This document shows, one piece after another, positions 1 through 11,771 of a stretch of 64,000 nt of DNA (positions are counted from its first letter, which is position 1; every line of letters starts with the position of its first letter). The notes beneath the pieces were generated by a model. It did no database searches. It was not told the origin of the DNA and worked only from the letters and a program-made list of their open reading frames with translations. The DNA is from Eledone cirrhosa (Eukaryota). The stretch covers positions 43,028,001-43,092,000 of the forward strand of contig OZ024745.1 of NCBI GenBank assembly GCA_964016885.1, given 5' to 3'. The position numbers and the translations under genes are program-made.

Positions 1-309
1 TATTTGGTATGCCATGTTACTATGATTAATTTATTCTAGCTTTTTCATCATGCAGCAGTTTAATAAGTTGGTGGACACTTCTGTAGACAATAGCCATTCT
101 GAATGCATCTTAGCAAACAATGCTCATCATTGAATTCATATGTTTTATCCTAACAAGTTTTGGATGCAACAACATGAATATTTTGATTATACAATCGTTG
201 CGATCATGACGGGTGGGGTGGGTGGAATAGAATTCAGAGTTATATTTGTGAGATGGTATTGTATTGATTCCACAGAGTTAAATTCAGAAATCTCCACCAT
301 GTCTATCAT

Positions 310-8151: not shown

Positions 8152-9110
8152 CTGCAATGATGAATCATTTGAACATTTCAACAATGATAAATAAAAATGA
8201 ATAACAAATCAAACGCTACTAACATTTGCAATTCCCCATACATTATCAATCACCATCATCATCATTTAACATCCAGTTTCCCTCCTAGAAATACAATTAA
8301 ACAGTTAATTTAAGTACCCCTATCTAGCAGCTAAGGCACATCTGGTCAAACTATGGCTAAAGAATTAGTCCAATTTACCTAGTTAAAAGTTGATATCACC
8401 ACTGTAAGCAACAGCAATCTTCAAATACTTGTTAATCATATAATAATTAACAATTATTTGAACATTATTGTTCTGAGGAACACAATATAAATGAACAAAT
8501 TAATGGATTTGAATCATATGAAAGTGAAAAAAAAGGGAAATTTGCAGTTCACACCTATAGATGTGTAGCTGGCCTCCTATGAGGTTGTATCTCACAGGTT
8601 TCTTTGATGTTTTAATGATAGGGTTCCCAGTCCTATCACAAAAATCAATGTGTCTTTCTCAAGAATACAACGCACTGCCTGGTCCAGCCTTATAAACATG
8701 AGACCAACACCCTAACATCTAGACCGGGCCGTTTCGGAGCTCCAGGGAGGCGCTGGAAGCCCCTTTAGTTTGGTAAGTTTTATAAGTCATATTTGTACGT
8801 CTCTTAGACAGCCAGTGTGAATGCATTTGAATGAAGAAAACAAATAAAATAAATAAAAGCTTGTCAACGAATTCCCTAGGGAGATAAAAGAAAAACAAAA
8901 GAAACAAAGAAAATGAAAATAAGGACAACGTCAACCTTGACAATAGTTACAAGAACAACTTCAACAGAAATGACAACAAAAAGAAGCAATGGTGGTGAAA
9001 CACACACACACACATGCATACACACTTAAATATAAATGCATGTATATATATACAAATGTATAAATACATAGCTATATGCATATGTAAATGTATGTATGTA
9101 GATTTATATA

Positions 9111-9448
9111 TTTCATTCATTTCATTTTACGTCAGCTTTTTCCCTGCTTGCAAGGGTGGGACGGGAACTGATTCTGGCTTGATTTCTACAGCTGGATGCC
9201 CTTCCTAACACCAACCTCATTTACAGTGAGTGCTGGGTGCTTTTTTGCCGTGGCACCTCCACAACCACTTTGCAGTGGAATGATAGGGACCCCAGTCCCT
9301 ATCATCTCATTTCTACAGCTGAGTAAACTGGAGCAATGTGAAATAAAGTGTCTTGTTCAAGGAAACAACACATCACCCAGTCTGAGTATTGAACTCACAA
9401 CCTTTCGATTGCAAAACCAATGCTCTAACCACTAAGCCATGTCCCTCC
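9111..9448 (-). mobile_element. tRNA/CORE SINE with RTE-derived 3' tail
   Basis: TGGCTTAGTGG A box, GAGTTCAAT B box, CCTTGAACAAGACACTT core; tail shared with the RTE 3'UTR; further copies at 19905-20283, 51598-52034, 62858-63193. Confidence 0.85.
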
Positions 9449-9464
9449 ATATATATATACATAT

Positions 9465-9536
<72 letters not shown>

Positions 9537-9652
9537 TTATATGATTCGCTAAGGTGAAAAGAATACTAGCTATAGACAATGGGATTTGCCAGACTCAATT
9601 TAAGAATAAATCAAGAAAATAAATAGAAACCGGAAATGTGGTAACTACCAAT

Positions 9653-9732
9653 CACCGAGGCAGCTTTGGTAATGCTGTTTTGCAAAATTAATTGTGAAGA
9701 GGTATACCAATTCTTGCTCATCAGTGGGTGAA
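9653..9732 (-). ncRNA. Second, mutated hammerhead copy in the inverted arm
   Basis: Reverse complement reads TCACCCA CTGATGA GCAAGAATT...TTTTGC AAAA CAGC ATTACCAAA GCTG CC TCGGTGA; GAAA has become AAAA. Confidence 0.7.
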
Positions 9733-9978
9733 GAATTAGTATCCTGGACACTTCTAAGTACATTAAAAAACTGAATAGTCTGCGTATATATAATAACGCA
9801 CATGGTATCTGGGTGATTGGTAGTTACCACAATTCCGGTTTGTATTTATTTTCTTGATTTATTCTTAAATTGAGTCTGGCAAACCCTATTGTCTGTAGTT
9901 AGTATTCTTTTCACCTTAGCGAATTTGGTCCCTTACGATTTGAACACATATATGTATATATCTGTGTTCGTTTTTCTT

Positions 9979-10903
9979 GGGTGACAAAATCAGCAGTGGG
10001 GGAGGGTGCTCTGAAAGTACAGTAGCTAGAGTCAGAACTGGATGGAAAAAGTTCAGAGAGCTTATACCACTATTAGCCGCTAAAAATGAAAGGCACGTTG
10101 TATGATGCCTGCATGTGAACAGCAATGTTGCATGGCAGTGAGACCTGGGCATTGTGTGCAGAGGATATACGCAGACTAGAGAGGAACGAAGCTTGCATGC
10201 TCCGCTGGATGTGTAATAGTAATATACGTGAACGGCAAAGCATAAACGAACTAAGGGAAAAATTAGAAATAAGAGGGATCAGATGTTGTTTATTCGAGAG
10301 AAGGCTACGTTGGTATGGTCACGTGATGCGCATGAAAGACGACAGCTGTATAAAAAAGTGCAGGGCAATAAAGATAGACGGTAGCCACGGAGTAGGCAGA
10401 CCCAGAAAAACCTGGGACGACCTGATAAATTCCGACCTCACACACTTACACCTCTCCAAGACAATGTGACTGGACCTAGATCTTTGGCGGTACTCAGTAA
10501 TAGAGAAGACCCGCCTTGCCTAAATACAAAGTAAACCTACTACAGTCAGTAGGCATCTCTAACAAAATACGCCCCCGTCACACCACCCCCACCGCCTCTT
10601 TCAATGTAAAGTTACGTTGGTGCCACAACATCCAGGCCGAAACAAATGAGATCGTGTAGGTGTCACGACAAAAAACACACAGTCCACGCTGTAATGTGGC
10701 CGTGTAGGCAACACGGTAAAAACCTCCCAGTCCCACACTGTAAATGTGGTTGGTGTTAGGAAGGGCATCCAGCTGTAGAAAACCCACCAGACAGTCCTAT
10801 GCGAGCAAGACAACCACTCTTGCCTCAAGTGGGAAAACTCACGTCCAAACCCATGCAAGCGTGGAACATGGACGTTAAACGATGATGATGATGATGATGA
10901 TGA
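9979..10903 (+). mobile_element. 5'-truncated RTE LINE inserted into the hammerhead element
   Basis: Close match to 4178-5120; MLHGSETW and RRLRWYGHVMR motifs; (GAT)n tail. Confidence 0.93.
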
Positions 10904-11163
10904 TTCAATTATAATATACGGCTTGGAAAAATCTCTTTCCTTATAAGAGACTATTTTGAGTTTCTAACTCAATATATACCTTTGATATATTCGGCTCCGT
11001 TAATTTGTTGAGCAAATTCAAATGTCGAGTAAACCTGGCTGCTATTTTTAGTGGTGTGAGTTTGTGAGACACGCTAAGCTCAGATACCATGTGCGTTATT
11101 ATATAAACGCACACTATTCAGTTTTTTAATATACTTAGAAGTGACCAGGATACTAATAATTCT

Positions 11164-11243
11164 TCACCCACTGATGAGCAAGAATTGGTATTCCTCTTCA
11201 CAATTAATTTTGCGAAACAGCATTATCAAAGCTGCCTGGGTGA
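11164..11243 (+). ncRNA. Type I hammerhead ribozyme with GCC cleavage-triplet variant
   Basis: Stem I TCACCCA/TGGGTGA; CTGATGA 11171-11177; stem II GCAAGA.../...TTTTGC; GAAA 11214-11217; stem III CAGC/GCTG; predicted cleavage after C11236. Confidence 0.85.
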
Positions 11244-11599
11244 TTGGTAGTTACCACAATTCCAGTTTGTATTTATGTTCTTGATTTATTCTTAAATTGA
11301 GTCTGGCAAACCCTATTGTCTATAGTTAGTATTCTTTTCACCTTAGTGAATCTGGTCCCTTGCGATTTGAACACATATATGTATATGTCTGTGTTCGTTT
11401 TTCTTTTATATTCAATTATAATATACGGCTCGGAAAAATCTCTTTCCTAGAGCTATTTTATTGTAAGAGACTATTTTAAGTTTCTAACTCAATATATACC
11501 TTTGATATATATATATATATATATATAAATCTACATACATACTTATATATATATATATATAAAAATCTACATACATACATACATATATATATATAAATC

Positions 11600-11631
<32 letters not shown>

Positions 11632-11771
11632 CATTCATACATTTACGTATGTATATAGCTATGCATTTATACATTTGTATCTATACATGCGTTTATATTT
11701 AAGTGTGTAAGGATATATATATATATATATATCATTATCACCTTCGTTTAATGTCCATCTTCCATGCTAGC

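Follow-up and report, generated by a model that had tools for sequence, protein, structure and literature searches.

Penelope-type elements (PLEs) are described as inserting in a distinctive layout, in which a full copy follows a truncated tandem copy and an inverted truncated copy lies alongside (PMC8557442). Hammerhead motifs occur in these elements, and the accessible text of the same paper states their role as unclear. In one in vitro system PLE hammerheads were dispensable, and a look for RNA reads that terminate at the cut of its element found none (PMC11167929). Supplements aside, no report of an excess of genomic ends at PLE hammerhead cuts was found in the open literature.

Here we analyze one such insertion in a 64,000-nt stretch of the Eledone cirrhosa genome (the window; contig OZ024745.1, 43,028,001–43,092,000) together with its repeat family. 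The original prediction held that the truncated direct copy at this locus began at a ribozyme-generated 5′ end and proposed a histogram of 5′ endpoints across genomic copies as the test. That histogram is nonrandom: 10 of 33 ends read between unit positions 245 and 258 fall at position 247, the first nucleotide after the predicted cut. The window locus by itself proves little.

Layout of the insertion and its hammerhead motif

The insertion is of Penelope type: a 520-nt noncoding repeat set between (TA)n tracts, in the order inverted arm, truncated direct copy, and full direct copy. We use the full unit (10,991–11,510, forward strand) as reference, so that unit position p corresponds to window position 10,990 + p. 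At the left edge, a (TA)/(CA) microsatellite (9,448–9,542) adjoins the reverse-strand arm (9,543–9,811), which is 5′-truncated, represents unit 91–362 reversed, and shares 93% identity with the full unit. The first direct copy occupies the forward strand from 9,810 to 9,978 (unit 247–415, 96% identity) and resumes at 10,903–10,990 (unit 420–520). Together, the partial tandem (a pseudo-LTR) and the adjacent inverted truncated copy give the window locus its Penelope-like form. At the 3′ end, an ATATAT overlap at 11,505–11,510 leads into a (TA)/(TACA) microsatellite (11,505–11,631), as had been described.

Between the two parts of the first direct copy lies a later, unrelated insertion of 924 bp (9,979–10,902) that ends in (ATG)n and has a genomic depth far above that of the 520-nt unit. 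At its edge, 4 nt of the unit are missing. Its reading frame is broken and is presumably LINE-like; the 116-aa frame gave no Pfam match. No reading frame longer than 120 aa overlaps window 9,400–11,700, the unit holds short frames only, and it encodes no RT or endonuclease of its own. Outside the element, AT-rich sequence at 9,019–9,111 resembles the right flank (11,619–11,709) in inverted orientation at 88% identity, with another repeat intervening before the element; this likeness may reflect an inverted duplication of target DNA during insertion or simply similar low-complexity sequence.

A type I hammerhead motif with a long stem II spans 11,164–11,243 on the forward strand. Its stem I arms lie at 11,164–11,170 and 11,237–11,243, the core CTGATGA at 11,171–11,177 (unit 181–187), GAAA at 11,214–11,217 (unit 224–227), and a GCC triplet at 11,234–11,236. 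These positions of stem arms, core, and GAAA place the predicted cut after 11,236, that is, between unit 246 and 247. An Rfam scan of the window at gathering score gave zero matches, and the complete hammerhead emerged neither from free folding (z −1.1 to −1.8) nor from a consensus fold of three sequences. We call the hammerhead because the core is exact and compensatory pairs occur across copies: among 81 copies the first pair of stem I is A-U in 65 and G-C in 12, and stem III pairs alternate between G-C (57) and A-U (6) and between C-G (61) and U-A (6).

The triplet at the cut is GTC in 107 of 137 arms and GCC in 7. At the window locus, both the full unit and the inverted arm, which covers the hammerhead and has GAAA decayed to AAAA, carry the GCC variant; C245 is the sole rare allele that these two share. 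NHH sites are reported to cleave much more slowly than NUH sites (PMC3138052 and PMC3923133, in the parts available). By that analogy, GCC is a poor cleavage triplet compared with the family's GTC.

The first direct copy matches the unit from 9,809 (unit 246), with TGGGTGATTGG beginning at 9,810. A CTG shared by both arms at 9,809–9,811 had been described as a microhomology spanning the cut. It is present, but measured against the usual GTC the shared stretch widens to TCTG (9,808–9,811), which places the true end of the first direct copy anywhere within 245–249. A lone coincidence with the cut inside a 5-nt interval is by itself no more than chance; the family histogram exceeds chance.

Arm ends across the repeat family

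A genome DNA search with the unit returned 3,325 first-look candidates, 40 of which were scored; most of the best 30 loci showed the full Penelope layout of full copy, upstream truncated copy, and inverted truncated arm. Outer ends clustered at unit 428–437 and 515–520, two clusters that resemble the two internal start sites reported in PMC11167929, as far as its accessible text describes them. Microsatellite priming, as predicted for the window copy, extends across the family, with 132 of 190 outer ends lying in TA tracts and followed by (TA)3+. Arms of the same locus shared 28% of rare alleles, roughly eight times the 3% found between loci, and we therefore take both arms of a locus to derive from one source molecule, which the sequences would allow to be either one RNA species with two starts or a new cDNA that was itself copied.

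Three further features of the family stand apart from the end analysis. Six loci (L176–L181) have an identical arm junction, from unit 41 to 274/275 with 5-nt microhomology, either a joining hot spot or copies from one composite source. A related 560-nt tandem repeat at L221 (4,385–5,520), about 65% alike to the unit, comprises two complete units that are 97% alike; in its hammerhead, stem III is long and the core is of the U3-A8 variant. An apparent cluster at 164 was discarded, as its members had no upstream sequence in common.

Arm ends were mapped with genome-wide exact patterns that combined a conserved downstream anchor with upstream letters set to "not consensus," thereby selecting arms that stop in between; five short windows of the unit's 520 positions were sampled in this way. 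The window's own junction is uncounted because it fails these pattern filters. For ends at 245–258, 63 of 906 anchor-exact arms matched. All 63 were read and sorted by eye: 33 were arms that end in this interval, 5 had larger internal deletions, and 25 read through with small changes and were excluded before counting. The 33 ends in this 14-position window were distributed as follows: 10 at 247, 1 at 245–246, 2 at 248, 1 at 250, 4 each at 253, 254, and 255, 2 each at 256 and 257, and 3 at 258. With a weight of 1.3 for chance matches, the binomial P value of the count at 247 is 0.0006. A strict script placed 8 of 34 ends at 247 (P = 0.011), a procedure that disfavors 247 because it halts at the first unexplained mismatch. 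All ten arms ending at 247 have different partners; with four others from two additional searches, the distinct insertions that begin at this nucleotide number 14.

Corrected rates per position were 1.3 at 228–243, 0.9 at 245–246, 17.9 at 247, 1.1 at 248–252, and 5.7 at 253–258. Base composition suggests a filter pass rate of 0.56; with the count adjusted accordingly, the cut is where about 18 of 906 arms (~2%) terminate. Both arms end at 247 in two palindromes (L083/84 and L096/97), and in four of the five larger internal deletions the right edge coincides with the cut (L064, L069, L154, and L173); two of these deletions jump to 183–186, beside the paired stem I arm. In addition, the 8 nt that directly follow the cut (TGGGTGAT) occur three times upstream of the arm at L168, as if a cDNA end had realigned repeatedly, and L094, L095, and L141 have short 247–254 deletions whose left edge lies at the cut, with TGG microhomology.

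Control windows set the scale of this excess. The upstream window 228–243 held at least 3 ends among the matches listed, counted in the first 100 of 313 rows, and the window 179–192 gave 2 rows. The window 260–274 returned 99 rows, of which 62 were read as loci and the remaining 37 were taken as read-through on the basis of the match itself; by strict counting, 268 had 6 ends, 273 had 12, and 274 had 14. Positions 273–274 adjoin the search anchor, and two recurring microhomology joins make up 9 of the 14. The pile at 247 is matched or exceeded elsewhere in the unit, at 268 and 273–274. Against the 253–258 shoulder alone, 247 is raised about threefold (P = 0.01).

Several candidate patterns did not hold. 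The first 30 loci gave the impression that the cut was a hard 5′ boundary, which tandem-enriched loci ruled out: of 14 tandem arms extending upstream to position 260 or beyond, 11 cross the cut, 2 stop at 256–257, and 1 stops at 248. A supposed cluster at 182–185 did not appear in the genome-wide pattern (2 rows, from one subfamily anchor only). Junctions at the cut do not have significantly shorter microhomology (at least 3 nt in 2 of 15, vs. 33 of 129 others; P = 0.52), and 3′ ends show no peak there, with L107 and L121 alone among 40 rows.

A Neptune-type partner element

A GIY-YIG search of the genome returned 10,596 candidates. Among six long frames scanned, four encoded an RT with a C-terminal GIY-YIG domain and two an RT only. 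Three loci of the 520-nt family are hybrids with one RT + GIY-YIG element (the L212/L223 type). At L107, unit 110–246 in sense orientation is fused exactly at the cut to a segment that covers the partner's stop codon and 3′ UTR and matches it at 99.6% across 534 nt; at L023 and L070, the partner's 3′ end appears as a continuation or as an inverted arm. The partner's linker, CNDNRCGTC, fits the Neptune CX2-5CxxC motif given in the accessible text of PMC8557442, and by this motif the partner would be a Neptune-type autonomous PLE. In 36 GIY-YIG loci, no terminal repeat common to the unit and a PLE was found; unit-like matches in L191/L221 and L212 proved to be separate insertions of a related repeat, not an autonomous parent.

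The partner's 3′ UTR contains a minimal hammerhead of the type described in PMC4209133, as far as the available text allows comparison, and a pile of ends at its cut was predicted before counting. By eye, with 30 loci read, 46 of 94 rows start within −2 to +1 of the cut. Exact read-through was found in 2,682 arms, so that ~3–4% of arms end at the cut. Because the bases at −1 and −2 are T, these starts cannot be told apart; 22 of the 46 represent a single hairpin fold-back junction, and a start that is unambiguously at +1 is seen in only 3. In the upstream control, any one position held at most ~12 of 100 rows listed, from 122 in all, again by eye. This replicate supports the cut-end excess but does not prove it.

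Two further observations concern the partner. A frequent head-to-head junction, larger than the pile at the cut and a point against the replicate, recurs ~70 nt upstream of that cut, in at least 7 pairs among the first 100 matches listed (spacing 159–160 bp); it may represent a palindromic mini-element or mark the 5′ end of an RNA. Near position 1500 of L283, two partner arms, each ending at the cut, flank 15 nt containing CTGTCTGGGT; this is the sequence around the 520-nt family's own cut, and its presence there may be chance.

Explanations for the cut-end excess and comparison with known systems

Judging from the arm ends, hammerhead cleavage is probably the cause of the family spike at 247. 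The account that we favor as a whole goes further and is correspondingly tentative: a repeat with Penelope layout is inserted by a Neptune-type enzyme, and ~2% of arms end at the predicted cut by way of a self-cleaved minority of templates. The PLE enzyme would nick a TA tract, and copying would begin inside a longer-than-unit transcript at AT-rich unit 520 or ~435. Two arms of one source molecule would then be joined head to head, often by 1–5 nt of microhomology. The majority of templates would be intact at the hammerhead and be read through; on cut RNA, the polymerase would run off at 247 with subsequent end joining, or alternatively the product might fold back or jump to an upstream fragment still held by stem I.

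For the window copy itself, the claim of a ribozyme-generated 5′ end fares differently at its two levels: the family has the expected peak at the cut, whereas the individual copy has microhomology and GCC. The copy fits the cut-end class, yet its membership is doubtful, and by our rough estimate from its junction a ribozyme-made end is rather unlikely. Chance is at least as likely, because 3–4 nt of microhomology crosses the cut and both other hammerheads of the locus carry GCC. Such microhomology is what an uncleaved template would yield. By the same triplet analogy, cleavage in the upstream unit of the source would be unlikely if its triplet was GCC too; if that unit had GTC, an upstream cut combined with a refractory downstream site would fit neatly. 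Passage over the downstream hammerhead, also part of the original prediction, agrees with read-through as the family norm, and the religation offered as its alternative is needless.

A circular template, which had been raised as well, is compatible with the data, and its retrozyme form is a possible but less persuasive reading. Here, loci with two hammerheads would be transcribed and cut to 520-nt monomers running from 247 to 246, which would persist as ligated or nicked circles; copying around the circle would generate tandems of more than one unit, and fall-off would occur at 247 when the circle was nicked. Circles have been demonstrated in the case of other retrozymes of animals (PMC7229834), and a proposal of circles has been made for PLEs (PMC4209133); the family has features to match. 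Copies agree exactly on the 520|1 join, some loci have two full hammerheads (L042, L046, L051, L054, and L058), and the deletions with an edge at the cut point to jumps over a nick. Successive units diverge by 5.0%, vs. 5.3% for same-lap arms (21 loci), as if near identical at birth, but young tandem source loci would give equal unit identity. Also against the circle, three-lap arms are rare (2 of 309, in a biased, flank-limited sample), and the partner shows the same few-percent pattern with units spaced ~4.2 kb apart. In addition, the GCC of a circle must derive from a site that underwent cleavage, which the NUH preference disfavors unless the change arose in cDNA.

A broader synthesis, in which germ-line hammerhead cleavage is fossilized in Penelope-type ends of both the repeat and its Neptune-type helper, with 2–4% of cDNAs running off at the cut, some jumping over the nick or arriving at the cut end from another RNA, and with nicked or ligated cut-to-cut circles as templates, strikes us as improbable in its entirety. 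We give similarly little credence to an explanation without cleavage, in which the polymerase stalls on the folded ribozyme, microhomology or hairpin fold-back sets the junction, and the match to the cut is structural; the shoulder would precede stem I, a stop would fall at the three-way junction, and the window copy, with its GCC and its microhomology across the cut, would be an ordinary microhomology join. Raised end rates at 253–258 and 268–274 do look like structure- or microhomology-driven stops, one junction recurs in six loci with 5-nt microhomology, and hammerhead mutants left in vitro insertion unchanged (PMC11167929, available text), but stalling accounts poorly for single-nucleotide precision at a site named beforehand (10 ends at 247 against 1 at 245–246 and 3 at 248–252), for the lack of a pile at the other junction edges (228–243, among the matches listed, and 179–192), and for partners at 247 that are unrelated, with L107 coupling a different RNA to C246.

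If cleavage is the cause, the nucleotide-precise excess would mean that it occurs on templates in vivo without being the main route. Other genomes rich in PLEs lend themselves to the same histogram of ends, and the sequences of the hybrid insertions speak directly for PLEs as candidate helpers of retrozyme-like repeats.

Among described systems, the family most resembles endonuclease PLEs of Neptune type and their nonautonomous derivatives (PMC8557442, PMC3846280, and PMC11167929, as far as their accessible text goes). The likeness comprises truncated and full tandem copies with an inverted 5′-truncated copy, a hammerhead in the repeat, (TA)n insertion, two alternative 3′ ends, and palindromic or microhomology junctions. 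Unlike those elements, the repeat lacks an ORF, its 3′ ends lie ~85 nt apart rather than differing by a 30–40 nt tail, and a search for extended similarity between it and the partner's terminal repeat found none. With animal non-LTR retrozymes (PMC7229834; bioRxiv 10.64898/2026.07.22.740005; accessible parts) the family shares a short, low-GC, noncoding head-to-tail repeat with a type I hammerhead and coexistence with PLEs proposed as helpers, but its members mostly span under two units and have inverted arms. The window locus also departs from retrozymes in having only one complete direct hammerhead, with the first copy beginning at the cut; the retrozyme arrangement does occur at a few loci of the family, L046, L051, and L058 among them. 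As for the HDV-like ribozyme of R2 (PMC3774820, available text), the cut is read from genomic 5′ junctions and chance microhomology joins occur; in R2, however, full-length elements have their 5′ end set by the cut, whereas here the cut is internal to the unit and marks ~2% of arms. On these sequence features, we classify the repeat as a nonautonomous Penelope-type, retrozyme-like element: the kind is already known, and the family is new.
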